DNA from: Terriglobia bacterium
Lineage (GTDB): Bacteria > Acidobacteriota > Terriglobia > Acidiferrales > UBA7541
DNA: 64,000 bases
NCBI GenBank assembly: GCA_963695545.1
Contig: OY968796.1
Location: forward strand, 1,088,001-1,152,000
Reading direction: 5' to 3'
Shown: one piece after another, positions 1,138-56,580 of the stretch
Position numbering within the stretch: position 1 is the stretch's first letter
Layout: the number at the start of each line of letters is the position of its first letter
Notes under the pieces: model-generated
Databases searched by the model: none
Told to the model about the DNA's origin: nothing
The model's input: only the letters and a program-made list of their open reading frames with translations
Program-made: the position numbers and the translations under genes

Positions 1138-1146
1138 TCCTCCAGC

Positions 1147-7683: not shown

Positions 7684-8358
7684 TCACCAACCGTACTCGC
7701 CGACCAGCGGCACGAATCGGCAATAATAAAGCGCCACCGACCGCAATTCCCCGGCGACTTTCCGCCCACACATCAACTGCTGTTCATTTGTGCCGCCGAC
7801 CGGCACGATGATCCTGCCGCCCTCGGCCAATTGCTCGATCAGAGGTGGCGGAATCTCCGGCGCCGCGGCCGCCACCAGAATCGCGTCAAACGGCGCAAGG
7901 TCCGGCAATCCCAAAGTGCCATCGCCCGCGTGCACGTGAACGTTGTCGTAGCCGCCGAGCCGCGCCAGTCGCTCGCGCGCGGCAAGCGCCAAGCCCGCGC
8001 GGCTCTCGATCGTGTAAACCTCGCGCGCCAATCGCCCGAGCACCGCCGCCTGATAACCAGACCCCGTGCCCACTTCCAGGACGCGCTCGCAGCCCATGAG
8101 TTCGAGCGCCTCACTCATCGAAGCCACCATGTACGGTTGTGAGATTGTCTGCCCTTCCCCAATCGGCAGCGGCGCGTCGTCATAAGCCCGGGCCCAATAT
8201 TGTTCGGTCACAAATTCGTGCCGCGGCACAACCAGCATCGCCTCCAGCACCCGCTCGGACCGAATTTTCCGCCCGCGTAGTTGCCGACTGACCATTTCCT
8301 CGCGCTTTTCGCGCCGCGCCTCGGCCAGCGTTTCCGGTGTCTCGGGAAGATGATGCAT
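7684..8358 (-). CDS. pcm: Protein-L-isoaspartate O-methyltransferase
   Basis: VPRHEF, GQTISQPYMVA, VLEVGTGSGYQAA and APFDAILV motifs; TATAAT 6 nt before the ATG at 8358. Confidence 0.93.
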   Translation of the reverse strand: MHHLPETPETLAEARREKREEMVSRQLRGRKIRSERVLEAMLVVPRHEFVTEQYWARAYDDAPLPIGEGQTISQPYMVASMSEALELMGCERVLEVGTGSGYQAAVLGRLAREVYTIESRAGLALAARERLARLGGYDNVHVHAGDGTLGLPDLAPFDAILVAAAAPEIPPPLIEQLAEGGRIIVPVGGTNEQQLMCGRKVAGELRSVALYYCRFVPLVGEYGW

Positions 8359-8395
8359 CGAGCGATTATAGCTGCTCACGCTAGTTGACAATATG

Positions 8396-8734
8396 TACCC
8401 CCCCTCCCCCCGGGTGTTTTTTGGAAGTGTTGATTCTGAACGACTTTAAGTCCTTTGCGCCAGAACTGGTGATTCTAATGGGGTTAAAATGCCGTTTTTC
8501 AGAACTGGTCATTCTAAAAGAGTTGGGACGCGAAAATGGCAAAAATGGCCGAATTTGAGTCAAGGAAGCGCCGCGCGACGAGCATGGATGAGACGGGGAA
8601 TGCTCGCGCGGGCGATTTCGTGGGGCGGGGCAGGTTGCCGAAACATTCAGCCGCGAGGGTATGTGGCTGCGATTCATTCCTTATGATAGCATGATGGTAA
8701 TTTCTATGTCAATGTTATTCATCGGCTATTCGAA
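8396..8734 (-). repeat. Dispersed promoter-bearing element, copy A (candidate ncRNA or mobile-element end)
   Basis: Minus strand: TTCGAATA (8734-8727), TTGACA (8712-8707), 18 nt ending TGC, TATCAT, 5 nt, ATG 8677; three motifs at 39-bp period; ends ACCCGGGGGG. Same layout at 34.4 and 55.2 kb. Confidence 0.7.
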
Positions 8735-8815
8735 TGGCTGTGGAAATTATTTCGAATGGGACGGCTATGCCGAAAACATCCTTCACAAATCTCGCGCTTA
8801 AGGATGCGCTGCCGT

Positions 8816-9244
8816 TCAATCGACGCGGAGAGCCTGAGCTATCGCCGGCAAGGCGTCAGAGAAATCGCGGTAGCCGTGGGTACGCCTGCTTGTCAATTCA
8901 ATTTGCCACTTGAAGCAATCGTAGTGAATCCGCCGCTGCCACGCCTCCATGTTGGGGTATTCCTGGGCGACTGCGCGAGCCGTGTCGACGTAGGCGTCGA
9001 GCATTCCAAATTTCCCCCTGGCTCTACCGCGCAGCATTTTCTTATGCAAAACGCGCCCCCTAAACGTGCCAAGCGATTCCGAGGTGGCTTTACCGCCGCT
9101 AGTCGTTGGCGCCGTTATCCTATCCAGAGAAGGAATCGTGAGTTCCGGTTCAACGTGGGGTTGGGTCGACCGCAGCTCGTGACTGGCCCAAACTGTTTCA
9201 TTCGCGATTGCAGTGATCAGAAGAAGTGGCAAGGTGGCTTTCAT
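8816..9244 (-). CDS. Hypothetical protein
   Basis: 142-aa ATG ORF co-oriented with and just downstream of the XRE gene; no recognisable family. Confidence 0.4.
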   Translation of the reverse strand: MKATLPLLLITAIANETVWASHELRSTQPHVEPELTIPSLDRITAPTTSGGKATSESLGTFRGRVLHKKMLRGRARGKFGMLDAYVDTARAVAQEYPNMEAWQRRIHYDCFKWQIELTSRRTHGYRDFSDALPAIAQALRVD

Positions 9245-30488: not shown

Positions 30489-31424
30489 TCAATCAGAAAC
30501 GTCAGAGAGTGATCCTCGTATCTTGCTGATACTATGTATCTTGTTGGATTTACATAGCTTTCTTAGGCCCTCAATGATGCGCTCGCAGGCCTTGGGGTCC
30601 GCAAACGAGGCCGTGCCCACCTGTACCGCAGTGGCACCCACGAGCATATATTCCACTACATGCTCCGGCGATTCGATGCCGCCGAGGCCGATAACGGGAA
30701 CTCGAACCGCGTGGCAAACCTGATAGACCTGCCGGAGGGTGATGGGCTTGATTGCGGGTCCGGAAAGGCCGCCGCTGATCCGCCCGAGACGCGAGCGGCC
30801 CGTTTCGGAATCAACGGCCATCGCTGGGTAGGTGTTGGCGACCGTCAGGGCGTCGGCGCCGGACTCCTCGGCGGCCCGGGCGATAGACGCGATATCTGTA
30901 ACTAAAGGTGACAGCTTCACCCAGAGCGGGTGCCGCGCCACCGGGCGGGCGGCCGCGACGAGCTGGGCGACCAAGCGGGCATCGGCGCCGAATTCCATGC
31001 CGCCGCTTGAAACGTTGGGGCAGGAAACGTTCAGCTCATAGGCGGCAACGCCATCGGCCTCTTCGAGCACGCGGATCACGCCCAGGTACTCGTCGATGCT
31101 GCGTCCGAAAACGTTGGCGATGATCGGTGTGCGATAGGCTCGGAGCTGCGGCAGTTTTTCGGCGACGAACGCGCGCACGCCGATATTTTGCAGACCGATG
31201 GCATTCAGCATCCCCCCACGCACTTCGCAAACGCGCGGCGCGGGAGCGCCCGCCATCGGCTCGAGCGAGAGCCCTTTGACCACGATGCCGCCAAGCTTGT
31301 TGAGATCGACGAGGTGAGCGAATTCGACGCCGTAGCCAAATGTGCCGCTTGCGGCGATGACGGGATTCTCGAAGCGTAACGCGCCGATCGTTACGCTCAA
31401 ATCGACTGCGTTCGGCGGAGCCAC
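30489..31424 (-). CDS. pyrD: Dihydroorotate dehydrogenase, class 1
   Basis: NPVIAASGTFGYG, ELNVSCPN, GGLSGPAIKP and GATAVQVGTA; GTG 7 nt after TGnTACAAT. Confidence 0.95.
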   Translation of the reverse strand: MAPPNAVDLSVTIGALRFENPVIAASGTFGYGVEFAHLVDLNKLGGIVVKGLSLEPMAGAPAPRVCEVRGGMLNAIGLQNIGVRAFVAEKLPQLRAYRTPIIANVFGRSIDEYLGVIRVLEEADGVAAYELNVSCPNVSSGGMEFGADARLVAQLVAAARPVARHPLWVKLSPLVTDIASIARAAEESGADALTVANTYPAMAVDSETGRSRLGRISGGLSGPAIKPITLRQVYQVCHAVRVPVIGLGGIESPEHVVEYMLVGATAVQVGTASFADPKACERIIEGLRKLCKSNKIHSISKIRGSLSDVSD

Positions 31425-31520
31425 TGCGCGAATTGTAACATGACGCCACAAGTTGCCGGCGACGGCGCGCTCGCGGCGGCTCTGTCGGGGCGACGGACAG
31501 TGTGCTAGAATACGCAACCA

Positions 31521-32069
31521 ATGCGGGTCGTCGAGAAGACGCAGTTGATGTCTGCGACGGAGATTGACCGCACCCTCCAACGGGTAGCTCACGAAATTGT
31601 CGAGCGCAGCGGTGGCACTGCGCATTTGGCGCTGATTGGAGTGCGCCGGCGCGGCGTGCCGCTCGCGCAACGCATTGCGCGAGCGATGCGCGCGATTGAC
31701 GGCGTGGATGTGCCCGTCGGCACGCTGGACATCACTTTATATCGCGACGATCTCTCGATGGTCGCGGCGCAGCCCGTTTTGCAATCAAGCGAAATCCCGT
31801 TCTCCGTCGACGGCAAAGATTTGATTCTGGTGGACGACGTGCTGTACACCGGCCGCACGATCCGCGCCGCAATGAATGGCCTGTTTGATCTCGGGCGGCC
31901 GAGCCGCGTGCGCCTGTGCGTGCTGATCGATCGCGGCCACCGCGAGATGCCGATCGAAGCGGCGTTTATCGGGCGCACAGTACAAACCAGCGACATGGAA
32001 ATTATCGAAGTGCGCCTGAATGAAATCGACCAGGAAGAGCGCGTGATGCTGGTCGAGCGCGTTCCTTGA
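31521..32069 (+). CDS. pyrR: PyrR regulator / uracil phosphoribosyltransferase
   Basis: LDITLYRDDL, LVDDVLYTGRTIRAA and DRGHREMPI. Confidence 0.96.
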   Translation: MRVVEKTQLMSATEIDRTLQRVAHEIVERSGGTAHLALIGVRRRGVPLAQRIARAMRAIDGVDVPVGTLDITLYRDDLSMVAAQPVLQSSEIPFSVDGKDLILVDDVLYTGRTIRAAMNGLFDLGRPSRVRLCVLIDRGHREMPIEAAFIGRTVQTSDMEIIEVRLNEIDQEERVMLVERVP

Positions 32070-33082
32070 TTCACCCGGAGACATCTGCTGCCGCCGAAGC
32101 GCGGATCGCTCCCGAAGAGATCGTGCCTTTTCGGTTCAACGACTTCCTGGCCATCGAGCCGCTTCACGCGGACGAAATCACTTTTCTTCTGGACCAAGCC
32201 AAACCCTTCCAGGAAATTCAGCGCCATCCGTTGAAAAAATTGGCGACGCTGCGCGGAAAAACGGTGGGCATCGCGTTTTTCGAGGCGTCCACGCGCACGC
32301 GCATCAGTTTCTCAACAGCCGCGGCTCGGCTCGGCGCCGATACCATGCAGTTGCAGGCGGAATCGTCGAGCCTGCAAAAGGGCGAATCGCTGCTCGATAC
32401 CGTGCGCACGCTGGATGCGATGAAGCCGGATTGCATCGTGATGCGCCACCGCTCGTCGGGCGCGGCGGAATTCGTCGCGCGGCACCTTGAAATTCCCGTG
32501 CTCAACGCCGGCGACGGCACGCACGAACATCCCACGCAAGCGCTGCTCGACGCGCTGACGATTCGCGATCGGCTCGGACGCCTGGACGGATGGAACGTTT
32601 CGATCATCGGCGACATTTTGCACAGCCGCGTGGCGCGCTCGAACATTCATCTGCTTTCAAAATTCGGTTGCCGCATCACGCTCTGCGGGCCGCCGATGTG
32701 GGTGCCTCCGGAAATGGAACGCATCACCGGCGGCGAGCCGGTGCGGCGCGTGGCGCGCGTGGAAGAAGCGCTCGACGGCGCGGACATCGTCCACGTGCTG
32801 CGCGTGCAGCAGGAGCGGCTGCACGAACCGAAGCTGCCGCTCGACGAATACGTGATGCTCTATCAACTCACGCCCGATCGCCTGCGTCTGGCGCGGCCCG
32901 GCGCGCTCGTGCTGCATCCGGGGCCGATGATTCGCGGCCTTGAAATCGATCCGGCCGTGGCCGATGGGCCGCAATCGTGCGTGCTCGAACAAGTGACCAA
33001 CGGTCTGGCCGTGCGCATGGCGCTGCTGTTCCTGCTGATCGGCCACGGCGGCGAAGAATCTCCCGCGAAGGACTCGATCTAA
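32066..33082 (+). CDS. pyrB: Aspartate carbamoyltransferase catalytic subunit
   Basis: FFEASTRTRISF, NAGDGTHEHPTQALLD, GDILHSRVARSN and HPGPMIRG. Confidence 0.96.
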   Translation: MIHPETSAAAEARIAPEEIVPFRFNDFLAIEPLHADEITFLLDQAKPFQEIQRHPLKKLATLRGKTVGIAFFEASTRTRISFSTAAARLGADTMQLQAESSSLQKGESLLDTVRTLDAMKPDCIVMRHRSSGAAEFVARHLEIPVLNAGDGTHEHPTQALLDALTIRDRLGRLDGWNVSIIGDILHSRVARSNIHLLSKFGCRITLCGPPMWVPPEMERITGGEPVRRVARVEEALDGADIVHVLRVQQERLHEPKLPLDEYVMLYQLTPDRLRLARPGALVLHPGPMIRGLEIDPAVADGPQSCVLEQVTNGLAVRMALLFLLIGHGGEESPAKDSI

Positions 33083-34355
33083 ATGTTGCTGATCAAGGCC
33101 GGGCACCTGCTCGATCCGGCCAGCAGGACCGATGCCCCCCGCGACATCCTCCTCGATGGCGACCGCATCGTCGCTGTCGAAGCGCCCGGAACGATTGGCG
33201 CGCGCAACGGTGACGTGCAACTGCTTGACGTTGCCGGCCTGATCGTGGCGCCGGGATTTATCGACCTGCACTGCCATCTGCGCGAGCCCGGCGGCGAAAG
33301 TTCCGAGACCATCGAAACTGGTACGCGCGCCGCGGCGCGCGGCGGCTTTACGGCCGTCTGCCCGATGCCCAACACGCGGCCGGTAACGACAACGCATCGG
33401 TGACGCGCTCGATTCTCGAACGCGCACAATCCGCGCACACGCGCGTGTGGCCGATCGGCGCGGCGTCGGCGGGCAGCCAAGGCGAGGCGCTTGCGGAAAT
33501 CGCGGCGATGCAAAAAGCGGGCGTAGTCGCCGTGTCCGACGACGGGCATCCGATCGCGACGGCGAAACTTTTGCGGCAGGTGATGGATTATTGCCGCTCG
33601 CTCGGCATGCCCGTGATCGATCACTGCGAGGACAGTCCGCTTGCTGCGGGCGCCGTCCATGCGCGAAGGGCCGGCGTCGATCCGCACTGGCGTGCGCGGC
33701 ATGCCTGCGGCCGCGGAATCCATCGGCGTGGGGCGCGACATCCAGATCGCCGAACTCACCGGTTGCCGCTTTCACATGGCGCATCTTTCGGCGCGCGCGT
33801 CGCTCGAGATGGTGCGCATCGCAAAGCACAAGCGCTTGGCGGTGTCCTGCGAAGTCACGCCGCATCATTTCACGATGATCGACGAAGAGGTCGGCTACGA
33901 TACGCAATCGCAAAATGAATCCGCCGCTCGGATCGCGCGAGGATCGCGACGCGCTGATCGAAGGATTGGCCGACGGAACCGTGGACGCCATCGCCACCGA
34001 CCACGCCCCGCACGAGCCGGCCACGAAAGAAGTGGAATTCGACCGCGCGCCATTCGGCATCACGGGGTTTGAAACCGCGCTGGGTCTCGCGCTCGAGCTC
34101 GTGCACGCAAAGAAACTCGGTCTTGGGCGCATGGTCGAGCTCTTCACCGTGGGCCCCGCGCATGTTCTGGGAATGCGTCGCCAAGTCTCCGCCGGCGAGC
34201 CAGCCGATCTGACGGTTTTTTCGACCGAGCATCGCTGGACGTTTCGCGCCGCCGAATCCGCCAGCAAATCGCGCAACACTCCCTTCGATGGCCGCGAATT
34301 CCGCGGCGGCCCCATGGCCACGATCGTCGCCGGGCGCGTCGTATATCGGCGATAA
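33083..34355 (+). pseudogene. pyrC: Dihydroorotase split by three single-base indels (pseudogene or assembly error)
   Basis: PGFIDLHCHLREPG, DHCED, CEVTPHHF and KMNPPL...IATDHAPH lie in four successive reading segments; shifts near 33385, 33658 and 33905. Confidence 0.88.
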
Positions 34356-34429
34356 TTCTGCAGCGCCCCAGCCGCATGACTCTTTTTGACGACGGCTAAA
34401 CTCTGTCTTATCAATGCGACGATTTGGGG

Positions 34430-34757
34430 GGTACACACCCCCGGGTATGTTTTGCGTAAGAGTGGCAAACACAGGGCTTGCAGCAAAAGAGTGACAAAGA
34501 GTGCGCAATTGATTGAGCGGGATAGACTTGCGCGCGTTTATTTTCAATGAGTTGCGCACTCTTTTGAAAGAATGTGTATGGGTCTGAAAATTAAGGGGTT
34601 CTTGGGGCGTGACAAAATGGACGCGGACGGATGATGAGGATGGGGTGCACGCAGGGGGAAAAGTCGGGGCAGTGGACGATTCGAATTGATCTCGGGCGAA
34701 CATTCAGAAGCGTCGCATATATTCAAACACATGTCAAGTATTAATTGAGTATTCGAA
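34430..34757 (-). repeat. Dispersed promoter-bearing element, copy B
   Basis: TTCGAATA (34757-34750), TTGACA (34737-34732), 17 nt ending TGC, GACGCT, 5 nt, ATG 34703; 13-bp inverted repeat at 34496-34508 / 34552-34564; ends ACCCGGGGG. Confidence 0.7.
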
Positions 34758-34815
34758 ATAATATCCGCAGGGCAAGCGCAACGTCGCGGAATGGACGATC
34801 GCGCTTCTTATGAGG

Positions 34816-34849
34816 CGGGGTTTTAAGAACCGAAGATTCCTTAAACCCC
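34816..34849 (-). terminator. Imperfect hairpin right after the Nmad2-like stop codon
   Basis: GGGGTTTTAAGAAC...TTCCTTAAACCCC imperfect inverted repeat. Confidence 0.4.
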
Positions 34850-35524
34850 TATTCACAAGAGCACTTGCGTTGGCAGCATGTTGTTCTTGACGGTGAAGAA
34901 AGCAATCGCTTGGTCGGCTCGGAAACCCATTCAATTACTCTGCGGGCTGCAATTCCGGTTAGCAGCGCATGTTTTCCTCTCGGATTCTCGGTCAGGGGAT
35001 TTTGAACGGTCGCGTGGCCCCTCCAAGTGACTCCTTCTCGAAGGAGTTCGACTAGCTCCTCGGTTACGACTGGTCCGCCTTTCCCGGCAACCCAGGAGCG
35101 GCTTTCTCCTGTAAAAAAGGCATCTCTTCTCCCCTTAATATCCGTTCGCCAATCCGTCGAATGCGCAGCGCGACGAATATGCTCGTATGTTTCGGGGGCA
35201 CCGTCTACATGACCAACCCCTCTTTTGGGACGAACGTGAATTGCGTTTCGCCGAGCAAGTCTAAAAAGTCTGTCGGTCTCCCCGCTGATATGCGCTTGCG
35301 AAAGTCATTTTCTTGTCAACCCGCATCCAAAGCAGGACTCGACGTTGCCTGCCCACCCCGGCAGGAGAGATGCCCATGATGTAGTCTCCTTCCTCCACTT
35401 CCGGACGCATGTTTTTCTTACACGGTCCAAAAAAGACTTTGCCTTCCTTCACCCACGGTACCGAACCTATCAGGCGGTAGTCCGGGCCAACTGTGGAGAT
35501 GATGTATGCAAAGACGCGAAGCAT
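34849..35524 (-). pseudogene. Nmad2-like (nucleotide modification associated domain 2) protein with one frameshift
   Basis: GPCKKNMRPEVEEGDYIMGIS...LLWMRVDKKMTF resembles the Nmad2 CKPxIR..GDWxxG pattern; adding one G at ~35281 joins a further ~140-codon open frame ending CCQRKCSCE at 34849. Confidence 0.6.
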
Positions 35525-35528
35525 TTTC

Positions 35529-36515
35529 TTACCCCGCTTGGTCCGAGCGCTTGTTTGAGAGTTCCTCTGCCTCGGAAATGGTTTTGGCAACGAACAACGT
35601 ATCCAACATGCACCACGAGCGCCGATTTCTCTGTATTCTCGGCCCCGTTCTTATTGTCCTGGCCGGTGAAAACGCGGGGCCCAGCTTGTAAAGGAAATGA
35701 GGCCCCCATTCGGCGTTGTTCGGAATCTCGGCGAACTTGTCGTGCGGGTTGAGGAAAATGTCATAGCCTTCAATGTGATGAATGGACTGAAGCTTTCCGT
35801 GATACCGGAAAGCCACGTAGTTCGGAGGTTCTTTAGGCCAAGTTTTCCCTACCGGGTGAAAGTAGCGTCGTCTTTTCTTAACGATGTCGATCAAAGATAT
35901 TTTCCAGCCTTCAGGCGTGCCGCTGCCGAGCGAAACTACATACACCCAATTGGAATCAATGTTTTGCATAGTCATCAACCCCCGCAAATACGTGAGCAGT
36001 TCCCGCAAAATGCGCCTTTCCGCATGCGAGCAATCGGACTGCGCCTCGACTGCGAGCCGAGCCATCTGTTTCCAAGAAATTGGGTGAATCTCTACACCCG
36101 ATGTCTTTCGAGTTTCAAGATTGAGGAGGGCGAATTCACGACTGCATTCGCTCATCACCAGAATCCGCCTCGGCAACCCCTTGCTCGCACGGAAGGAGGG
36201 CCGCTGTGCATACGTCTTCAATTGTTTCTGGCTCGGCAAAGTCCAGCCCCGCTTCGCCTCGACGATTAGAAAAAACTTGCCCGGTGACTCAATCTCGATG
36301 TCTGTGATGCCCGCCTGCTTCTCATGCTGTTGAAGACGGATAACCACGTTGCTCAAATCGGGCGCTATTCCCAAGGCATAGTGAACGAAATTGCCCAGAA
36401 GGTGTGGTGACTGCGAGAGTGCCCAGGCTACGCTGTACGTGATGGCATTTTCGTGTTCGCCAAGGAGGCTGAAAACGCTCTTGACTGTTCTCTTGTGTAG
36501 AAGGAGTTCCGTCAT
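35529..36515 (-). CDS. PD-(D/E)XK superfamily nuclease with extra C-terminal domain
   Basis: HENAITYSVAW, ITDIEI...LIVEAKRG...QLKTY and ISWKQM restriction-like motifs; SD GAGG. Confidence 0.75.
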   Translation of the reverse strand: MTELLLHKRTVKSVFSLLGEHENAITYSVAWALSQSPHLLGNFVHYALGIAPDLSNVVIRLQQHEKQAGITDIEIESPGKFFLIVEAKRGWTLPSQKQLKTYAQRPSFRASKGLPRRILVMSECSREFALLNLETRKTSGVEIHPISWKQMARLAVEAQSDCSHAERRILRELLTYLRGLMTMQNIDSNWVYVVSLGSGTPEGWKISLIDIVKKRRRYFHPVGKTWPKEPPNYVAFRYHGKLQSIHHIEGYDIFLNPHDKFAEIPNNAEWGPHFLYKLGPAFSPARTIRTGPRIQRNRRSWCMLDTLFVAKTISEAEELSNKRSDQAG

Positions 36516-36702
36516 CGCGCCTCACCTAAGGACGCATAATACGCTCGCAGATGATTCTTACCACCGCCGCCCGATAAAAACTTACGTAGTCCGAGCGCTT
36601 GCGGTACACTCTCGCTCTGGACTGTTGCGGAATTTTTCTCGCTCGCGTTGCTACGAAGCCTCGGGTTATTCCTGCGAAACAGCCCAGTAAGGCGGGGCTG
36701 CG

Positions 36703-38757
36703 ATGAAATCCACTGGGCCAATCGGAAACTTCGCGCGACTCTGTATTGCGGCTGCGATTCTGGCGATGGCGCCGGGCGTCGCGCACGCTCAGGCGCAGAA
36801 AACAAAACAGCCGGTTGCGACGAAGCCCGCTGCTAGCACTACGCCTCCGAGGCCCGCCACGACTTCAAGACGCACTACAACTTCAAAAACCACCACGACT
36901 ACCACGACGAAAGCGCCTTCCACCTGGAAGTCCGTCTTTCACAAGCCGGCATCCACGACAAAAACTGCCGGCACTTCAAAAACTGTTTCTAAATCGAAAT
37001 CGGGTTCCGCGTCGACGCCCGGTGCTCGTGCGAAAACCGTCTCCAACTCGAAAGCTTCCCCGCCGCCAAAAACGACCGCCACTTCAAAAAGCGTATCCAC
37101 TTCCAAGCCTGCCGCCACTTCGCATGCGGGCGCGGAGCCTCACGGCGCGACGAGCGACGGCGGCCTGAGCGCCACAAAATCCGGCGGGCGCGACGCGGGT
37201 GCGGGCAAGGGCGCCGGTCTGACCGATGCGGGGCGCGGCACCATGACTCCAGCGAGCCGCGGCGCGACGACGGCCGAGAGAAAAACTCCGGATAAAGCCG
37301 AGCCCGACGTGAAGGCGCCGGAGAGCCACGCGCCTGAGACTCACGCAGCGGAGAATCACGCAGAAGGCGCGCGAACCGTGACGCGCCCCAATGGCGACCG
37401 CGCTGAATACAACAGCGCGGGCAAGCCAACAAGATTGACGACAAAAGACGGAGATGAAGCGCGGTTCGATTCACGAGGCCAGATTCGCGCGATTCACACA
37501 CAAGATTCGACAATTCGCCTCGGCCCTCGCGGCGGTCGCACCGTGGTGACCGAGCGCCCCGATCACACGCGCTTGGTGAGCATGGGGCCGCACTACGGTT
37601 ACGTGGATCATCCCGTTGTGCGCAATGGACGACCTTATCTCGAGAGAACCTACGTCGCCGGGGGTCGCGTTTACGCGCGAGCGTATCCCGGCTACTACTA
37701 CCGCGGGGCGCTCTATTATCATTACGTGCCGGCATACACCTACGCTCCGGCGTTCTACGTATGGGCGGTTCGTCCATGGCATGCGCGCGCCAAGTGCAAC
37801 TGGAATTGGGGGCCATGGTATAGCGATTACGCGTCGTACTTCACACCCTATCCCGATTACGACGACGCCTCGCTGTGGCTCACGGATTACGTGATCGCCC
37901 AGCAGCTCCAGGGCGCATACGAATCCCGGCAGCAAGCGCCGCCGGTTTCGCAACCAATCGCGTCCGTTTCCGGCAGCGACGCGAACGCCGGAAGCACGGG
38001 CGCGCCCGCGGGGAGCGCCCCACTCAGTCCCGAGGTCAAGCAAGCGATCGCCGCCGAAGTCACGGCACAGCTCGCCGCCGAAAAAAACTCCGCGATGAAT
38101 ACTCAGGCGGCGTCAGGCACGTCCGCGCCGAGCGGCGACGTGCTGCCGGACGCGCTCAATCCTTCGGAGCGCACCTTCATCGCGGACATCTCGCTCGACG
38201 AGGATACGGTGGACGGCGGAACCTGTTCGGTGGGCGCCGGCGATGTGCTCACGCGCGTCGACACTTCGCCAAACGCGGGTCAAAAGGTTGACGTCATCGT
38301 CCGCAGCAGCCAAAAGGGCGATTGCGCCGCGGGCATACACGTTGCGGTCTCCGTTTCGGACTTGCAGGACATGGCGAACCACTTCCACGAAAAAGTGGAC
38401 GATGGCGTCGATAATCTCGCGAAGAACCAAGCACAGAGCGGAATGCCTCCCGCCCCTCCCTCCGATCCCGTGCAGGTGGCGGACGCGCAGGCCAAACCGG
38501 ATCTCGATGCGCAACGCCTCTTGCATCAGCAACAGCAGTCCGCGGACCAGACCGAGAAGAACGTTCAGCAGTCCGTGAATCACCTGGGCGCAATTTCTTC
38601 GCGGTTCGTTGATCGAGGGACGAGCGCGGCGCTCGCGATCGAGGGCGGCGGCCTCGGCGGGACGCGATTCGCAGATTCCGCGAACGAAGACGCCGCAATT
38701 CTTCCGTCGAATTCCGAAACGCAGGTTCGCACACGCCACAAATCCTCGACGCCGTAA
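36703..38757 (+). CDS. Large secreted low-complexity hypothetical protein
   Basis: Signal peptide; S/T/K-rich N-terminus; Tyr/Trp-rich middle; Gln-rich C-terminal region with two Cys. Confidence 0.8.
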   Translation: MKSTGPIGNFARLCIAAAILAMAPGVAHAQAQKTKQPVATKPAASTTPPRPATTSRRTTTSKTTTTTTTKAPSTWKSVFHKPASTTKTAGTSKTVSKSKSGSASTPGARAKTVSNSKASPPPKTTATSKSVSTSKPAATSHAGAEPHGATSDGGLSATKSGGRDAGAGKGAGLTDAGRGTMTPASRGATTAERKTPDKAEPDVKAPESHAPETHAAENHAEGARTVTRPNGDRAEYNSAGKPTRLTTKDGDEARFDSRGQIRAIHTQDSTIRLGPRGGRTVVTERPDHTRLVSMGPHYGYVDHPVVRNGRPYLERTYVAGGRVYARAYPGYYYRGALYYHYVPAYTYAPAFYVWAVRPWHARAKCNWNWGPWYSDYASYFTPYPDYDDASLWLTDYVIAQQLQGAYESRQQAPPVSQPIASVSGSDANAGSTGAPAGSAPLSPEVKQAIAAEVTAQLAAEKNSAMNTQAASGTSAPSGDVLPDALNPSERTFIADISLDEDTVDGGTCSVGAGDVLTRVDTSPNAGQKVDVIVRSSQKGDCAAGIHVAVSVSDLQDMANHFHEKVDDGVDNLAKNQAQSGMPPAPPSDPVQVADAQAKPDLDAQRLLHQQQQSADQTEKNVQQSVNHLGAISSRFVDRGTSAALAIEGGGLGGTRFADSANEDAAILPSNSETQVRTRHKSSTP

Positions 38758-38758
38758 T

Positions 38759-39718
38759 TCACGCGCGCGGGTGCGCTTTGTCGTAAACGTCCATCAGCTG
38801 GCTGATCGTGGCGTGAGTATATTTTTGCGTGGTGGAAAGCGATGCGTGGCCCAGCAATTCCTGGATGGCGCGCAGATCGGCGCCGTCGGCGAGCAGATGC
38901 GTAGCGAAGGCGTGGCGCAGTGAGTGGGGATGCAGGCTCCAATTGATGTTCACCAGAGCCGCATATTTTTTGAGGATGCGATTCACCGAACGCGGCGAGA
39001 GGCGCGTGCCCGCGTAGTTCAGAAACACGGCTTGCGCATCGGTTCGTCCCTTCGCGTGCTCCAGAATCCCGGTGCGCACTTCCCAATACGCGGCGATGGC
39101 GCGCTCGGCTTTGCTGCCGAACGGCACGATGCGCTCCTTATTTCCTTTGCCGAGCACGCGCAGCATTTTTTCCTTGCGGTCCATGTCGGCGATGTTCAGT
39201 CCGGTCAACTCGCTCACGCGCAAGCCTGAAGCGTAAAGCAACTCGAAGAGAGCCAGATCGCGCTTCACCAGCAGATGCGATTCGTGCGGCGAAGCGCCCG
39301 GCCGCGACGCTTTTCCAGCCAGCGCTCCCTCACCGGCGGCAACCATTTGATCGAGAAAACCGTTCATCTCCTCCGCGCTCAAAACCCTGGGCAAGCGCTT
39401 CGGCAGCTTCGGCGTCGAAACCAATCGCGCTGGACTGCTTTCCAAAATGCCCTCGCGCACGCAATATTTAAAAAGCGAGCGGATCGAAGCCAGCTTTCGC
39501 GCCATCGTGCTTTTCTGCAAACCACGGCCGTGCAGATGGCCCAGGAATTCGCGAATCGTGCGGTGATCGATTTTGTCGAGCTGAGGCGGCGCCGCGCCGG
39601 GTGGCGTGAGATAGGCGACGAAATCGAGCAGGTCGGTCTGGTAATTGCGCAGCGTGCTCGGCGAAGCGTTGCGGACCGAGCGCAGGTAATCGATGTAACG
39701 CGCGATTACAGCTTTCAT
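38759..39718 (-). CDS. xerC: Tyrosine recombinase XerC
   Basis: LYASGLRVSEL, GKGNKERIVP, HPHSLRHAFATHLL and LLGHASLSTTQKYT; downstream of topA. Confidence 0.9.
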   Translation of the reverse strand: MKAVIARYIDYLRSVRNASPSTLRNYQTDLLDFVAYLTPPGAAPPQLDKIDHRTIREFLGHLHGRGLQKSTMARKLASIRSLFKYCVREGILESSPARLVSTPKLPKRLPRVLSAEEMNGFLDQMVAAGEGALAGKASRPGASPHESHLLVKRDLALFELLYASGLRVSELTGLNIADMDRKEKMLRVLGKGNKERIVPFGSKAERAIAAYWEVRTGILEHAKGRTDAQAVFLNYAGTRLSPRSVNRILKKYAALVNINWSLHPHSLRHAFATHLLADGADLRAIQELLGHASLSTTQKYTHATISQLMDVYDKAHPRA

Positions 39719-39806
39719 CTAAGGCACGCCGCGCGCGCCGGCCCGCGCGCCAAAATCCGAGACGCATTGCGCGCCGCGTTCTGCGCGGCCCGGTTCGAGA
39801 CCGGCT

Positions 39807-51389: not shown

Positions 51390-51628
51390 GCCATTCCTCG
51401 CGCCACCGGGCCTCAACGGATCCGTTCCCAACCCACGCCCGCCGAAAACGAAATCTTAGGAAGTGGACGCAGGCGCGACGGCACCGCCCTCTTCAACTGG
51501 GGCGCGGACGTAACAGGAAACCGGTGTCAGTGCTTCGAAGCGATCGATTGTCGAGCGGCGGCGCGGATGACATCGATCACCGAGTTCGGGTTGGCGAGCG
51601 TGGGGGCGTGCCTGGTTGCGATCGAAGG

Positions 51629-52327
51629 TCACCGCAGCTGTTGACGTAGAAATTCGCTTGTCCGCCCGTTCGCGAGAGTTGCCGCGGCGGCATTGTAGTG
51701 TGCGCCATTGTGCCGAGAGAACGCATGATTCTGACCCGGATAGCTGTAGACTGTCGTGTTTGGTTTCTTAGCAAGCGCCGCTTTAATCTCAGCTTGCGCG
51801 GCCTTGGAAATGAACTCATCCTCCTCGGCCAGATGCATTAGAAGTGGCGCATTAAGCCCATCGACCTCGCCTAGATATTTTTCGGTGTCGCCGCCGTGAT
51901 AAGCGACCGCGGCGTCGACGCCGTGGCAACGCACGGCTGTGAGAAAGACCATCAGCGCACCGAGGCAATAGCCGAGGAGCGCGACCTTCCCGTTGCACTC
52001 CGGCAGATTGCGCACGGCGTTGACGGTGTCCTTGACGTCCCTGGCGCCGGCGTCTCGGTCATAAGCTGCGTACAGACGAAGGCCGTGTTGCCAGTCGGCC
52101 TCGGAGGTGACGGTGAGGTCGACGCCCGGCTCCTGACGCCAGAAGAGGTCTGGCGCAACGGCGAGGAAGCCTTGTTCCGCCAGTTCGTCGCAATGTTTGC
52201 GGATGTCGGCGTTCACACCGAACAGCTCCTGCAGAACGACGACAGCGGGAGCCGGCACGGTTTTCGGTCTTGCTATATAGGCGGCGAACGCGCCGTCATG
52301 TCCTGCTACCGTGATGTAATCGTTCAT
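51629..52327 (-). CDS. Dienelactone hydrolase family protein
   Basis: QELFGVN, GYCLGA nucleophile elbow and YPGQNHAF. Confidence 0.92.
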   Translation of the reverse strand: MNDYITVAGHDGAFAAYIARPKTVPAPAVVVLQELFGVNADIRKHCDELAEQGFLAVAPDLFWRQEPGVDLTVTSEADWQHGLRLYAAYDRDAGARDVKDTVNAVRNLPECNGKVALLGYCLGALMVFLTAVRCHGVDAAVAYHGGDTEKYLGEVDGLNAPLLMHLAEEDEFISKAAQAEIKAALAKKPNTTVYSYPGQNHAFSRHNGAHYNAAAATLANGRTSEFLRQQLR

Positions 52328-52416
52328 GGTGTTCTCCTCGGATGACGAAATTCATCCAGGCCTCCGCCGATGCGGTCGTCTGGATCGGCGGAGACCCACT
52401 GTCGAGTGAGGCGGTT

Positions 52417-53118
52417 TCAGCCGGCGGCACGCATCGAGGCCGCAGCCGCAGCAGCCTCTTCGATGAGCTTGGCTGTTTCCTTCGGATGAGACACGTAGGC
52501 CACATGGCTCGACTTCACTTCGACCGTCTTGGCCTTGGCGCGCTTCGCCATCATGCGCTCCTGATCCGGATTGATCGACCGGTCTTCGCTGGCCACCATG
52601 TACCAGGTGGGCTTGTTCTTCCAGGCGGGCGACTTAACCTGATGGGTGAACGAGTCGGTGGAGATTGGCACTTGCGAGATGGCCATGAACCACGCCTTCT
52701 CCGGCGGAATATCCGCTGCGAAGTCGGCCGCGAAATGCTCCTGATCTATCCACCAGTTGTTATTGCTGTCCGGCGTGAACGCCTTGGACGCTTGCGGCAG
52801 AGCCTGTTCGATCGACGCACAGCTCTCGCCTTCGTCGAGCGCAAATGCGGCAATGTAGACGAGCGCCACAACCTTTGGATGATTGCCGGCCTCGGTGATG
52901 ATGGACCCTCCATAACTGTGGCCCACCAGAACCACTGGCCCGTCCATGGCGTCGATGGCCGCCTTCGTGTACTTTTGGTCGTCGGCGTAGGAGGTTTCCG
53001 GGGGCTGCGCCACCGACACCTTGTAACCATCATTCTTCAGGATGTTAGCGACGGGTTCCCAACCGGAGCCGTCGGCGAATGCACCGTGCACCAGAACCAC
53101 GTTCTTGATGTTCGTCAT
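52417..53118 (-). CDS. Alpha/beta hydrolase
   Basis: VLVHGAFADGSGW and LVGHSYGG; AGGAG SD. Confidence 0.92.
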   Translation of the reverse strand: MTNIKNVVLVHGAFADGSGWEPVANILKNDGYKVSVAQPPETSYADDQKYTKAAIDAMDGPVVLVGHSYGGSIITEAGNHPKVVALVYIAAFALDEGESCASIEQALPQASKAFTPDSNNNWWIDQEHFAADFAADIPPEKAWFMAISQVPISTDSFTHQVKSPAWKNKPTWYMVASEDRSINPDQERMMAKRAKAKTVEVKSSHVAYVSHPKETAKLIEEAAAAAASMRAAG

Positions 53119-53361
53119 GGTTACTCTCCTCTTCAGTTTGAGCTTCAACGAGTCATGCAAGTTCTGTGTAATCGACCCGCGCATCAAGGTAGGCGCACGC
53201 AACCTCTCCGCTCTTGCAGGATTTTGCGGATTTTGTTGTTTTCTGTCGGGACATGGACGTATGGGCTTGCCCAGGTATGGGGTCGCCGAATGAAGATCTA
53301 GCAAGTAAGCCGTACCGGACGCTTGAAGGGTAAGCGCAACCTTCCGCCGATTCGTAAGGGA

Positions 53362-54354
53362 TTAGGCAGGGTTCTTAGGTTCGATAGCTCTGGCGGCGAT
53401 GTAGCGGCGCCATTGTCCCGGGCTGATTCCCATTACTTGGCGGAAGGTGCGCGTGAAGGCGGCCTGATCGCCGAAGCCGGACTGAATTGCTATGTCCGCA
53501 ATCGGCGTGGTCGTCTGCCGAAGTAATTCTTTGGCGTGCTCGATGCGACGCCCAATCAACCACCTATGAGGTGCCGTGCCGAAGGTCGCTTTGAATGATC
53601 GGGCAAAGTGACTCACGGAGAGCGAGCACTCGCGCGCAACTTCCGTTAGACGTATCCGACCATCCAAATTTTCCCGGAGTAGTTCCGCCGCGCGGCGCTT
53701 TTGCCAAGGGGCAAGACCGCCTTTGGAAACCTCGCCCATTTTTTGGAGTACACCGTACCGTTGAAGCAGATGCGCTCCCAAAATCAGGCTGAACTGATCG
53801 AGCGCAAGCAGCGAGGGACCATCGCGGCGCCCGATAAAGGGGAGAATGCTCCTGGTGATCTGGGCTAGAACCAAATCGTCTTCGACAACCGATAACCTGT
53901 AACTGCGTACACGGCCGAAGCCAAGATCAGCTGCGATGTCATCAAGCTCGACACGCGGCACCGTGTAGTGAACGTAATCGAACGCCTTACCCGCCCAGCA
54001 GCTTGGTTCGGAATCGAAATCAATGACATTACTCCGAAACGACGGAATGATCGGGGTGGGTATAACTTTGTCTGCGACCCACACTTGGTAGCTATTGAGT
54101 GGCAAAGATTTGAGACAGATCGACACGAGCAGAGCTGGCACACTTGATACCTTCGTGATGCGATCAGGCAGTCCAGCTGATGACTCAAGGCGCGTTACCG
54201 TAAAAGTGCCTGGAGTACGAAACGGCGAGGGGACCGAGGAGCTCCGGTCCAATTTAATGTGAGTCGTAAAAGGGTCCTCGGACCAAGCTTCAGGCGAGTG
54301 CGTGAAATCCCGATTCTCTTCGCCGGTGCGAGTTTTATTCAAAGCAAACTCCAC
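53362..54354 (-). CDS. AraC-family transcriptional regulator
   Basis: GGLAPWQKRR, LSVSHFARSFK and GFGDQAAFTRTF. Confidence 0.9.
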   Translation of the reverse strand: MEFALNKTRTGEENRDFTHSPEAWSEDPFTTHIKLDRSSSVPSPFRTPGTFTVTRLESSAGLPDRITKVSSVPALLVSICLKSLPLNSYQVWVADKVIPTPIIPSFRSNVIDFDSEPSCWAGKAFDYVHYTVPRVELDDIAADLGFGRVRSYRLSVVEDDLVLAQITRSILPFIGRRDGPSLLALDQFSLILGAHLLQRYGVLQKMGEVSKGGLAPWQKRRAAELLRENLDGRIRLTEVARECSLSVSHFARSFKATFGTAPHRWLIGRRIEHAKELLRQTTTPIADIAIQSGFGDQAAFTRTFRQVMGISPGQWRRYIAARAIEPKNPA

Positions 54355-54510
54355 ACATAAGACGACCGGTCACCTTATCGCCGAAGAATATCAGCTTTTC
54401 TGCTCGTTTAGCGAAGGGCCTAAAAAGAGATTGAGATTTTCGGCAGGAATTAACAAATTCAGTCATTTTCGACAAGCCGGGGACGGGTGATTTTTTGCCA
54501 GATTCAATTT

Positions 54511-55107
54511 ATGTCTCCGAGTCAGGGCGAGATCTCACATCGAGAGCACGATCCGCGCGAAATGCTTCTGCTCTCCGCTGGCAAACTGTTTCAGGACGTC
54601 GGCTATGTCCAAGCGAGCATTTACCGTATCGCATCTGCGATAAACGCGCCTAAAGGCACTTTCTATAATTACTTCAGGAGCAAAGAAGACCTCGCATCGA
54701 GACTTGTAGATCGCCAGTTCGATGCCCTTCGTGAATCGCTTTCTCGCTCAACGGGTCATAGCGCGAGCCATCAACTGAAGAAACATTGCAGCTTCCTGGC
54801 AATAAAACCGCCGATGGTTGAAGTGGCCCCGCTCCAACTTCTGGCGACCCTCGCTGCGGAGGCACCGGCAATCCCCGTCGCCCTTACGCAACGTATCGCT
54901 CATGGCACAGACATCTGGATCGCTCATGTAAGCGACTTGATCTCACTCGCTCAGATAGAAAGCGGAACAACTGCGCAAGATCCCAAAAAGCTGGCGTCAC
55001 TGTTGGTCACTTGCTGGTACGGAGCGATCGTTCGTAGGAAATCGGACCCATCTTTGAAACTTCTCGAGGACTTTCTTCCGTTCTTCATCCGCAGCGGTGT
55101 CCCCTGA
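54511..55107 (+). CDS. TetR-family regulator (divergent)
   Basis: KGTFYNYFRSKEDL HTH; C-terminal WYGAIVR. Confidence 0.8.
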   Translation: MSPSQGEISHREHDPREMLLLSAGKLFQDVGYVQASIYRIASAINAPKGTFYNYFRSKEDLASRLVDRQFDALRESLSRSTGHSASHQLKKHCSFLAIKPPMVEVAPLQLLATLAAEAPAIPVALTQRIAHGTDIWIAHVSDLISLAQIESGTTAQDPKKLASLLVTCWYGAIVRRKSDPSLKLLEDFLPFFIRSGVP

Positions 55108-55203
55108 AAAGGACTTCTATCAAAATATTCTCTTTTCGAAAGACATCGCCGCCGTTCGAAGCGAACGAGGAACCAAGACCACGTCACTTTTCTACCCATT
55201 CTA

Positions 55204-55535
55204 TTCGAATAACTCATTCATTATCATTGACGTGCTGCTACTCTATATGCTAAACTCAGGTGTGCGCTGCGAACTGAAACTTTCGCCAAAGAACCTGCGG
55301 ACAACGCGCCGCGCCCCGCGCAACATTTGCGCATCAAGTGCGCATTCACGCGCAAAAAACGCCCCCGCAACTCCTTTCCTTTCAGGCTTATACGCACTCG
55401 TCCAAAAGAGTGCGCATCTCATTGAAAAAAAACGATATCAACACGCTTGTTTTCATACTCATCCGCACTCTTTCCCTGCAAATCCTTTGGTTACATCATT
55501 TTACATATTTGATACCGGGGGTGGATGGAGGGGCC
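55204..55535 (+). repeat. Dispersed promoter-bearing element, copy C
   Basis: TTCGAATA (55204), TTGACG (55227), 18 nt ending TGC, TAAACT, 5 nt, GTG 55262; 55359-55473 aligns without gaps to copy B; ends ACCGGGGG (55514). Confidence 0.7.
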
Positions 55536-55671
55536 CCTCGGAAATTATCCCAAAAATCGGGCAATGCTCAGGCGAGCCCACCGCCGGGCAACCATCTCCC
55601 GGACTTCGCACGATGCGTCGGGCGCATCTAACCTTCTATGATATAGTTCGCCAGTTGAAACGGTCGCTGCC

Positions 55672-56580
55672 ATGAGCAAACTTCGCGTCTCCGTCGTCGA
55701 GTTCCTGAACACCGCGCCACTGGTTTGGGGTTTCACCGACGGCCCGCTCGAAGGCCGCTACGATCTTTCCTTTGCCGTGCCCTCGCGCTGCGCCGATGAC
55801 CTGCGCGCAGGCCGCGTGGATATCGGCGTGATCCCCGCGATCGAATATCAGCGCATCGACAATCTTGAAATTCTGCCCGGCATGGCCGTGGCCGCCCGCA
55901 ACGAAGTGCGCAGCATCCTGGTGGTCTCGAAGCGCCCCATCGACCGCGTCCGTCGCTTCGCTCTCGATCGCAATTCGCGCAGCTCCATCGCTCTCGTTCG
56001 CCTTTTGTGCCGCGGCCTTTGGGGAATCGATCCTGAATTTGTGCAAGCCGCGCCCGATCCCGCAGCCATGCTTGCCGAAGCTGACGCCGCCCTTTTGATC
56101 GGCGATCCCGCTCTGCGCGTGCGCATGAAAGTGGATGCCCTCGCCAGCAAAACGCCCGGCGCCGGAGGCTGCTGCGGAGGCCGGGACGACGAGCAGCCGG
56201 TTCCGGGTGTCGACATGCTCTTCGTCTACGATGTCGCCCAGCAGTGGCGCGAGATGACGGGTCGTCCCTGCGTTCTCGCCGTGTGGGCCGCGCGCCGCGG
56301 CGTCGTCACGCGCGCAGTTCTGGACGATTTCGAGGCCTCAAAGGCGTACGGCCTGGCGCACCTCGAGGACATCGCCGAAGGCGCCGCGCTCAAACTCGAT
56401 TTGCCGCCACGCGCGCTCGAATCCTACTTGCGCGAAAATATCGACTATTCGCTCGACGACGAAAATCTCGCCGGCCTCGATCTGTTTTATCGCCTGGCCG
56501 CCTCTGCGAAATTGATCCCCGACGAGCGCCCGATCGAATTCGCCGCCGCGCCAGCATCGATCGCGCGCGCCGCGCGCTAA
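55672..56580 (+). CDS. mqnA: Chorismate dehydratase (futalosine pathway)
   Basis: FLNTAPL, SRSSIAL, LLIGDPAL and WREMTGRPCVLAVWA; adjacent to mqnC. Confidence 0.9.
   Translation: MSKLRVSVVEFLNTAPLVWGFTDGPLEGRYDLSFAVPSRCADDLRAGRVDIGVIPAIEYQRIDNLEILPGMAVAARNEVRSILVVSKRPIDRVRRFALDRNSRSSIALVRLLCRGLWGIDPEFVQAAPDPAAMLAEADAALLIGDPALRVRMKVDALASKTPGAGGCCGGRDDEQPVPGVDMLFVYDVAQQWREMTGRPCVLAVWAARRGVVTRAVLDDFEASKAYGLAHLEDIAEGAALKLDLPPRALESYLRENIDYSLDDENLAGLDLFYRLAASAKLIPDERPIEFAAAPASIARAAR

Follow-up and report, generated by a model that had tools for sequence, protein, structure and literature searches.

In a 64,000-nucleotide stretch of a Terriglobia bacterium genome (GenBank assembly GCA_963695545.1, contig OY968796.1, positions 1,088,001 to 1,152,000; hereafter the window), three copies of a dispersed repeat, referred to herein as E1, E2 and E3, adjoin the housekeeping genes pcm, pyrC and mqnA, respectively. 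On balance, we favor the interpretation that these elements are members of a genus-specific family of dispersed mobile cassettes, each composed of a promoter and a leaderless leader open reading frame (ORF), that mark the fixed 5' edge of resident transcription units. An earlier note on this DNA had described accessory genes, or cargo, on the side of each element that bears a TTCGAATA box (the box side) and housekeeping genes on the opposite side (the tail side), and had proposed that the elements are polar hotspots of gene acquisition. Our analysis partly confirmed the observation and partly supported its interpretation: the polarity and the lineage-specific DNA on the box side were upheld, whereas the integron-like or one-ended mechanism, the link to a recombinase and the cassette polarity were not.

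The three elements are homologous to one another, both by nhmmer and by mutual alignment, and the window contains exactly these three. E1, of a variant-tail subfamily, lies on the minus strand at 8402..8767 (nhmmer hit 1096402-1096767, E 2.4e-30), E2 on the minus strand at 34396..34792 (hit 1122396-1122792, model positions 27-444, E 8e-73) and E3 on the plus strand at 55187..55578 (hit 1143187-1143578, E 5.6e-75), with its conserved tail ending at about 55527. The source genome (G000) is a single contig of 4,159,512 bp with 60.6% GC, in which the window corresponds to G000:C1:1088001-1152000. A profile built from the three window elements matched about 100 places in this genome, and a refined nhmmer profile gave 122 hits that merged into 111 loci, 96 with both the promoter end and the tail end, 10 with the 5' part only and 5 with the 3' part only. 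The element is approximately 350-450 bp long and its copies share roughly 70-80% identity. By BLAST the family was present in all five same-genus genomes, while among 35 further relatives no convincing member was found outside the genus, the matches being short GC-rich stretches. The pattern of box plus -35 occurred 58 times in G000, 35 times in G003, 7 times in G008 and 0-2 times in other same-family genomes, and in 0/16 genomes of other families; the reversed control of this pattern gave 0 or 1 occurrences. The distribution tallies (BLAST, the cargo homologues discussed below, and box plus -35) take in two unpublished genomes, G031 and G013, on which no claim rests.

Three further observations concern the range of the family. 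G008 belongs to another genus of the same family; the box plus -35 modules of its seven copies are related ones, of the type TTCGAATAACCACT.AGTACCGCTTGACA and of a second type, and they suggest a smaller sister family. A full element was found on a 3.8-kb contig (L087; nhmmer E 3.9e-73) of a record titled as a Bradyrhizobium sp. metagenome-assembled genome; this contig is probably mis-binned. A 20-mer match in a Planctomycetia assembly contained no element by nhmmer and was taken as chance. A literature search on the box TATTCGAATA and on mobile promoters, which was far from exhaustive, found no paper on this element among those listed.

The copies share a common anatomy. In the consensus, a subfamily-specific 5' edge of 10-45 nt is present, and the edge of homology varies with the subfamily rather than being fixed at the box. 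The 5' part holds the palindrome TATTCGAATA, often with one or two extra TTCGAA boxes, and about 16 AT-rich nt separate the palindrome from the -35 of a near-consensus sigma-70 promoter (TTGAC[AG]-N17/18-TAnnnN) that was found in 83 of the 96 copies, with a TG often preceding the -10. The start codon discussed below is followed by approximately 25 semi-conserved nt and then by a C-rich stretch that is very variable in length and sequence. The 3' part is a highly conserved, G-poor tail of about 170 nt, and homology ends sharply past the tail end, ...ACCGGGGGTGTATATA. Inspection by eye revealed three degenerate units in the tail, each ending in CAAGTCCCTTTGTTTTCA, together with an inverted pair (AAAGAGTGCG and CGCACTCTTT), short subfamily-specific hairpins near the 5' end of the element, and, in some copies, a GGGGG...CCCCC hairpin where the tail ends. 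The number of TTCGAA sites in the genome is close to that expected from base composition (564 observed, 576 expected), and 206 of the 564 fall in the elements plus 80 bp on each side, which together make up 1.45% of the genome. Within the window, all four occurrences of TTCGAATA are inside elements, a count that 9/100 shuffles reached. A candidate second promoter at the tail end (TTTACG-18-TATATA; ~8/12 matches by eye) was not listed by the consensus scan and was dropped.

All 83 promoter-bearing copies carry an ATG (51) or GTG (32) beside the -10, located exactly 5 nt after it in 80/83. The frame set by this start codon is stop-free to the tail end in 78/83 copies, versus 6/83 and 8/83 in the other two frames, and the copies of relatives gave a comparable result (16/21 versus 1/21 and 0/21). 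An earlier count that used the variable part only and a less careful choice of start found the frame open in 68/76 copies, versus 27/76 and 50/76. The tail is translated in different frames among copies, with frame switches inside the tail, and no codon periodicity in the conservation of the element was apparent by eye. No Pfam family was found for the E2 leader product, and the two matches to the E3 leader product among 5.8 billion proteins were itself and one hypothetical protein. Since the product is not conserved as a protein, the selected feature appears, from the sequences compared, to be the uninterrupted reading frame and not a peptide. In mycobacteria, leaderless translation begins only at an ATG or GTG at +1, according to the relevant part of one report (PMC4633059). 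With its start codon at the predicted transcript start, the mRNA of the element would be leaderless.

For comparison, the gene at 50998-51354 (minus strand) of the window may have a native leaderless promoter: by eye, the region 51345-51395 reads TTGACA, a 17-nt spacer, AACCAT, 6 nt and ATG, and the counterpart in G003 also has TTGACA.

The orientation of the elements is strongly biased with respect to the gene that follows them. The tail-side gene is co-oriented with the element in 73/96 copies, while the box-side gene is co-oriented in 45/96 and opposed in 51/96, so that the proposal that cargo points into the element did not hold as a general rule. The flanking genes are divergent at 37 copies, tandem and co-oriented at 36, tandem and anti-oriented at 14 and convergent at 9. 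These layouts rely on a home-made gene caller (3151 genes, 84% of G000) with crude starts. To describe the flanking genes we took every second element (40) and left out two window copies, which gave a sample of 38. The tail-side genes of this sample are ordinary, diverse and of unrelated families, including ThiI, FabH-like, iPGM, LigA, EPSP-synthase family and Usp proteins, and 32/38 had a Pfam family at E up to 1e-5. On the box side of the same elements, the ORF considered was the longest one (90 aa or more) lying no farther than 700 bp from the box, a choice that favors long native genes; most of these are also ordinary (Ddl, enolase, PNPase, LptD and acetate kinase among them; 26/38 with a family), and only one PIN and one HNH protein were clearly accessory among the 38.

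At loci with a co-oriented downstream gene, the end of the leader ORF fell between -20 and +15 nt relative to that gene's predicted start in 25/58 cases, compared to 20/126 control frames (Fisher p 1.6e-4), and the leader and the gene shared an ATGA overlap in 10/58, compared to 8/126 (p 0.03). The controls were the two other frames read from the tail end, and they contain a few stops within the last 9 nt of the tail, a small bias that favors this result. Shine-Dalgarno-like motifs were observed by eye inside the end of several leader ORFs. The counts suggest that, in G000, translation of the leader may be coupled to that of the downstream gene.

The DNA on the two sides of the elements also differs. 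Mean GC in the first four 500-bp bins was 0.587, 0.594, 0.598 and 0.601 on the box side and 0.617, 0.622, 0.615 and 0.620 on the tail side, with the box side being lower in 70, 68, 61 and 60 of the 96 copies, respectively (p 5e-8 for 0-500 bp). The first 1.5 kb had less than 0.57 GC on the box side of 19/96 copies versus the tail side of 2/96. No GC asymmetry was found at 679 element-free gene starts with a 200-900-bp upstream gap. The side bias suspected by the earlier note is therefore present genome-wide, and the window cargo, which it had judged by eye to be less GC-rich, indeed has 0.51-0.56 GC by kilobase versus 0.606 for the genome. Non-self repeat matches between flanks numbered 640 on the box side versus 45 on the tail side, and the box-side repeats include GTAG-headed hairpins, similar to repetitive extragenic palindromic (REP) sequences, that are separate from the elements. 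Families of these hairpins (GTAGCGGAGGCCTTCAGGCCTCC, CCCCGTAGGGGCGACAC and GTAGGGGCGGAGCTTGCCTCCGCCC) are concentrated upstream of elements, for example at G000:C1 2548170-2548600, and none is clear in the window. In addition, a stretch of ~930 bp shared upstream of two elements matches itself reversed over ~170 bp at each end by BLAST.

Comparison with relatives placed variable DNA on the box side of all three window copies, as had been anticipated, and in each case two same-genus genomes lack this DNA at the orthologous position. Intervals that vary between genomes comprise 3/3 of those bearing an element versus ~4 of ~50 others (hypergeometric ~0.0015 by our own arithmetic, with intervals from 56 called genes); the variable spots that lack an element in the first 60 kb are 913-3736, 9601-9730, 22606-22946 (in G004) and 45544-47610. 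Thirty elements were retrieved from G003 and G004, and for 21 of them the DNA flanking the tail side is found immediately next to an element in G000. The box-side flank was informative for 17 of these 21, and it was syntenic in 6, partly syntenic in 1 and not syntenic in 10 (where it had no counterpart, matched at a distance or matched the flank of a different element). The remaining nine of the 30 have no G000 element at the matching place, so the presence of the element varies between species. These nine include two clean empty sites (L022 and L072, filled in G004 and empty in G000), where no target duplication was visible, the intergenic DNA being too diverged to place the junctions. Two loci, L062 and L082, each combine the flanks of two different G000 elements, and the copies therefore serve as substrates for rearrangement. 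Of the element-free variable spots, 913-3736 is a lineage-specific insertion of 2.8 kb with a 568-aa gene (1505-3211, minus strand), the orthologous place measuring 324 bp in G003 and 42 bp in G004.

The three window loci illustrate these features individually. At E1, the consensus scan found the promoter TTGACA-18-TATCAT with a TG (8712-8683, minus strand; 11/12 matches). The 98-aa leader ORF (8381..8677, minus strand) begins at an ATG 5 nt past the -10 and stops 1 nt before the ATG, at 8379, of the co-oriented gene directly downstream, pcm (7684..8379, minus strand; Pfam PCMT, E 1.5e-62). On the box side lie a gene for a 142-aa unknown protein (8816..9244, minus strand), which ends 82 bp from the box, and an HTH_37 gene identified by Pfam (9287-9652, minus strand). 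The interval that separates pcm from the large gene differs in every one of the five relatives, where it ranges from 123 bp to over 2 kb. At E3, the box is at 55202-55211 (plus strand) by motif search and the consensus scan found the promoter TTGACG-18-TAAACT with a TG (55227-55256, plus strand). The leader ORF begins at a GTG 5 nt past the -10, encodes 137 aa (55262..55675, plus strand) and has a TGA that overlaps the ATG of the co-oriented mqnA (55672..56580, plus strand; VitK2_biosynth, E 2e-51) as ATGA. An element is also present upstream of mqnA in G001, G002 and G003, and in two of these the leader and mqnA form a single ORF, of 488 aa in G003 (L031 943-2409) and 504 aa in G002 (L033 211-1725). 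The box side of E3 is a block of four genes (51390..55186) that includes, by Pfam, AraC (53362-54354, minus strand) and TetR (54487..55107, plus strand) genes, the latter stopping 97 bp from the box. Block and element together (51390-55637, 4.25 kb) correspond to 833 bp in G003.

E2 differs from these two in its downstream context. Its conserved part runs from ~34792 (5') to ~34428, where the tail ends in ...CCCGGGGGTGTGTA. By family consensus, its TTCGAATA box (34750..34757, minus strand) is located within the palindrome upstream of the -35, and the promoter (34709..34737, minus strand), as read from the sequence, consists of TTGACA (34737-34732), a 17-nt spacer and GACGCT (34714-34709). This -10 is poor, and the consensus scan did not list the E2 promoter. 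The leader ORF (33870..34703, minus strand; 277 aa in the ORF list) begins at an ATG at 34703, 5 nt past the -10, stays open through the tail and then runs antisense into the 3' part of pyrC (dihydroorotase; 33083..34355, plus strand), which is convergent with E2. The pyrC gene was recognized from Amidohydro_1 Pfam pieces and occupies three frames in the window and a single frame in relatives. Contigs from up to four short-read runs differ from the window by 1 nt at 33385 (insertion), 33655 and 33905 (both deletions), which restores one pyrC frame; the frameshifts are assembly errors and pyrC is not a pseudogene. The same kind of indel error may affect other G000 genes, and the genome is 93.76% complete although closed. 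Together with PCMT and VitK2_biosynth, these Pfam assignments verified that housekeeping genes occupy the tail side at all three window copies.

On the box side of E2, a first cargo gene (34850..35590, minus strand) has an N-terminal part (35261-35590) that is weakly Nmad2-like (PF18753, E 4e-4, below the Pfam cut-off), and the rest of it is interrupted and spread among several frames, of which the one that ends near 34850 contains four stops in 247 codons. The earlier note had given cargo stops at similar short distances from all three boxes. This was accurate for E1 and E3 (82 and 97 bp), while at E2 no intact ORF of at least 50 aa ends at 34849, and the frame that ends there looks like the broken 3' part of the weakly Nmad2-like gene. 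A second cargo gene (35529..36515, minus strand) encodes a 328-aa protein with no Pfam, NCBIfam or PADLOC match. Its homologues were found in 0/5 same-genus, 0/24 same-family and 2/15 family f3 genomes (49-51% identity); in both of the latter no element adjoins the gene, so homologues of the cargo gene do occur without the element, in these two genomes only. The earlier note had described the cargo as toxin-antitoxin, defense or regulator genes; it comprises HTH_37 and unknown proteins at E1, the Nmad2-like and 328-aa proteins at E2, and TetR and AraC proteins at E3, and none of the PADLOC defense families gave a match. E2 is present in G000 only by comparison with relatives. E2 and its cargo form a 2.2-kb block (34356..36598) in place of which G003 and G004 have ~41 bp between pyrC and the next gene, indicating that the element arrived with the cargo and was not there before it. 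In the contigs of four runs (X1-X4) over 31000-41000, no joint that skips the cargo was found, the short sides of the joints being 21-47 letters and the breaks lying inside the repeated tail; this check used contigs rather than reads, and rare forms may escape it.

Elsewhere in the window, six to seven tandem copies of a 59-nt unit (10275-10716; 147-nt register, 64-100% identity) sit at the 3' end of, or just past, the large gene at 10658-14710 (minus strand), and no tRNA or tmRNA was found in the window.

G000 has five tyrosine recombinases (PF00589), none tied to elements. The only one encoded within the window (38759-39718) is separated from E2 by 4 kb that include an unrelated gene, and it is found at the same position in both G003 and G004, where E2 is absent. 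Upstream of the elements there is no recurring protein family, the largest cluster spanning three loci. Hits to Y1_Tnp (PF01797) numbered six at four IS200-like or RAYT-like loci outside the window (RAYT, REP-associated tyrosine transposase; G000:C1 1198935-1199192, 1387492-1387803, 1424860-1425102 and 1474552-1479267), all 0.1-4.5 kb from an element on its box side; by our own arithmetic, regions no more than 1.6 kb from a box side make up ~4% of the genome. The proximity is either the same box-side accumulation or a hint at the mobilizing enzyme. Two of the Y1_Tnp genes are near-identical 208-aa copies. TnpB (PF07282) was not found in G000. A search for an autonomous copy was likewise negative, with no locus having a large insert between the two ends and no protein recurring upstream. 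The GC skew was too weak to place the origin of replication, and the elements showed no regional strand bias.

We considered whether the elements could be recombination sites, such as integron-like attI sites or the ends of one-ended transposons, where accessory genes would be inserted on the TTCGAATA side by a recombinase supplied in trans. The lineage-specific DNA abutting the box side of 3/3 window copies, the genome-wide GC asymmetry, the 10/17 informative loci of relatives with a non-syntenic box side, the palindrome at the boundary and the box-side position of all six Y1-transposase hits would fit such sites. We nevertheless regard this explanation as improbable. Box-side genes show no common orientation (45 co-oriented versus 51 opposed), the ORFs sampled there are mostly ordinary genes, no upstream protein family recurs beyond three loci, and the promoter points away from the cargo. 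Only five tyrosine recombinases were detected, and relatives have that of the window at the same place. The homology has a 5' edge that depends on the subfamily and is not fixed at the box, the pyrC element came together with its cargo, homologues of the cargo occur without an element, and the contigs of the four runs contain no joint that skips it. The earlier note had itself reported no matching distal end or target duplication, and we also saw none at the E2 and E3 junctions, among the flank repeats or, as far as the diverged DNA there allows, at the two filled and empty sites. An alternative with a little more to commend it, although still unlikely, is that the family is a non-autonomous transposable element, akin to miniature inverted-repeat transposable elements (MITEs) or REP sequences and perhaps moved by a Y1 transposase or RAYT, of which the promoter and open frame are incidental passengers. 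The ~100 dispersed copies with unrelated flanks, their variable presence between species, the six Y1_Tnp genes near elements and the recombinant flanks of L062 and L082, which show copies in rearrangements, are all consistent with mobility. Against this, the consensus has no terminal inverted repeats, as the box and promoter that form its 5' end do not complement its 3' end (...ACCGGGGGTGTATATA), and the window repeat listing contains no inverted repeat pair joining both ends of one element. No target duplication was visible at the two filled and empty sites, where the DNA is too diverged for certainty, and TnpB was not found. Moreover, copies at ~70-80% identity, and hence old, keep the promoter, start codon and open frame in ~80-94% of cases, which points to selection on expression and not only to mobility, and the copies show a strong orientation bias towards downstream genes.

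Two further explanations concern the product of the element. A multicopy family of non-coding RNA genes, each with a promoter, a part for targeting that varies and a scaffold that is conserved, would explain why the promoter and the 170-nt tail are conserved on either side of a variable middle. The consensus tail can be folded into a long hairpin (-37.8 kcal/mol), and the fold of the E3 leader has a z of -1.96. This seems to us a doubtful explanation: Rfam 15 gave 0 matches at the gathering score in the window, and matches to E2 at E up to 10 were at chance level only (E 0.47 or worse); RNAalifold on 66 copies gave no consensus structure; and among 129 distinct tails compensatory changes did not exceed shifted controls (105 cells versus 112-134). 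The homology ends in ...GTATATA with no conserved terminator, the strand is G-poor, and a stop-free frame in 78/83 copies is not expected of such RNAs. That same open frame would be natural for a family of small proteins of 100-180 aa that are rich in Pro, Ser and Ala in their N-terminal part and conserved in their C-terminal part, and whose genes are upstream of others by coincidence. The motif FHTHPHSFP of the C-terminal part recurs in many translations, and some frame switches could be artifacts of assembly indels. We give this reading little credence, however, since copies differ in the frame of the tail, with at least two frames in use and switches within it, conservation is at the nucleotide level with no visible codon periodicity, the E2 product has no Pfam family, and the E3 product has one non-self homologue among 5.8 billion proteins.

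We therefore return to the interpretation of the elements as mobile promoter and leader-ORF cassettes. Each copy would bring with it a complete front end for gene expression. The one to three TTCGAA palindromes would be sites for a dimeric regulator, and the sigma-70 promoter would start a transcript at the ATG or GTG, yielding a leaderless mRNA. As three quarters of the copies face a resident gene, the transcript would read into that gene, and ribosomes loaded at the 5' end may be handed over to it by termination and reinitiation; alternatively, translation of the leader may shield this long leader from premature termination. Because the cassette and the downstream gene would then form one unit, insertions and rearrangements would be tolerated only on the box side, where foreign or variable DNA, REP-like hairpins and Y1-transposase genes would gather and give rise to the polarity. 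The copies may also contribute actively to the polarity, as portable homology or through strong transcription that attracts insertions. A more ambitious version, which we put forward only tentatively, is that a self-propagating cassette of regulator box, promoter, leaderless start and stop-free leader cistron switches on downstream transcription and, by ribosome hand-over, translation, ties ~100 loci into one genus-specific regulon via the TTCGAA box, and fixes their 5' border so that new DNA enters just beyond it; such a cassette would be nature's equivalent of the bicistronic design of synthetic biology.

Several results weigh against this interpretation. Across the genome, a -10 box 4-7 nt before a start codon is about as frequent as in a shifted control (83 versus 80; 2421 genes with crude starts). 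The transcript start and the translation of the leader are predictions made on a soil metagenome assembly: the four sequencing runs in which most of this DNA is present all derive from soil metagenomes, 19/20 of the listed runs are DNA, and the single RNA run contains 5% of the sampled words. Indel errors in this assembly blur the frame calls, the gene calls come from our own caller, and the G000 copies are related by descent, so that counts over copies are not fully independent. E2 and 22 others, 23/96 copies in all, face a convergent gene and drive no annotated gene. In relatives, the leader ended within the -20 to +15 range at 2/13 mapped loci, which is the control rate, with the same genome partly counted twice; at four orthologous loci the end of the leader ORF differs from that in G000; and the mqnA leader, which is fused in frame with the gene in both G003 and G002, runs out of frame in G001. 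The interpretation does not account for how strongly the tail is conserved, neither 3-nt periodicity by eye nor hairpin covariation having been found, and the account of cassette and gene as one unit does not explain why element-free promoters show no asymmetry.

If the interpretation is correct, copies of one repeat would supply the promoter, and perhaps also the translation start, of ~2-3% of the genes of this uncultured acidobacterium from soil. Few examples of a mobile promoter rewiring regulation would be as clear. What would be new for such repeats is a leaderless leader cistron kept open by selection. It would raise the questions of how a promoter spreads within a genome, how far leaderless translation extends beyond well-studied phyla, and whether the TTCGAA box makes a regulon of unrelated genes. 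For annotation, the leader ORFs are likely missed or miscalled, and in-frame read-through can falsely extend genes, as at mqnA in G003 and G002. More generally, variable DNA beside a repeat need not make that repeat a recombination site.

Among known systems, integrons (attI, attC and IntI) resemble the elements in having a fixed, promoter-bearing site with variable genes on one side. Unlike integrons, the elements have no IntI beside them and no uniform cassette orientation, and their promoter fires away from the cargo rather than into it. No attC-like repeat was found at a fixed place after the cargo; the box-side repeats lie at scattered distances, and none is at the distal junctions of E2 and E3. 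The IS200/IS605 and REP-RAYT systems share with G000 the presence of a Y1 (HUH) transposase. Correia elements, enterobacterial repetitive intergenic consensus sequences (ERICs) and REPINs are other promoter-bearing repeats. Of these, Correia elements carry terminal inverted repeats along with a TA duplication; in the element family no terminal inverted repeats were found and no duplication was visible.

The closest parallels to the parts of the cassette come from two systems. Mycobacterial leaderless mRNAs and 5' small ORFs, in the sections of the report that describe them, likewise have ATG or GTG, to the exclusion of other codons, at the expected +1, a few bases past a TAnnnT -10, with no Shine-Dalgarno sequence, and the small ORFs are located at transcript 5' ends upstream of annotated genes (PMC4633059), as the elements would be on their predicted transcripts. 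The elements differ in being a repeated homologous cassette of an acidobacterium with ORFs of 100-180 codons and predicted start sites, and in the absence of a genome-wide signal with crude starts. The bicistronic design of synthetic biology, as outlined in its published description, also places a promoter before a fore-cistron, the stop of which overlaps the gene's start or lies directly next to it (PMC8601185), similar to the ATGA at mqnA and nine other loci. Here, by contrast, the arrangement is natural and dispersed, the fore-cistron is long and predicted to be leaderless, and the coupling is statistical in one genome, with 2/13 in relatives.

The nearest described concept for the element as a whole is the putative mobile promoter (PMP) of Matus-Garcia, Nijveen and van Passel (2012). 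PMPs, in the portion of that study that characterizes them, are homologous non-coding sequences upstream of unrelated genes that bear promoters, have no Rfam match and move in a manner that is not known (PMC3575422), all of which resembles the elements. Most PMP families are pairs at ~92% identity, as given in the same portion of the study (PMC3575422), whereas the present family has ~100 copies at ~70-80%, and its 350-450-bp element has a fixed architecture with a start codon at the predicted transcript start and an open frame. The defining feature of a PMP, similar sequence upstream of non-paralogous genes, is nonetheless found here: 73/96 copies are co-oriented with the gene they precede, the 38 sampled genes are of unrelated families, and the tail flanks gave 45 non-self matches.

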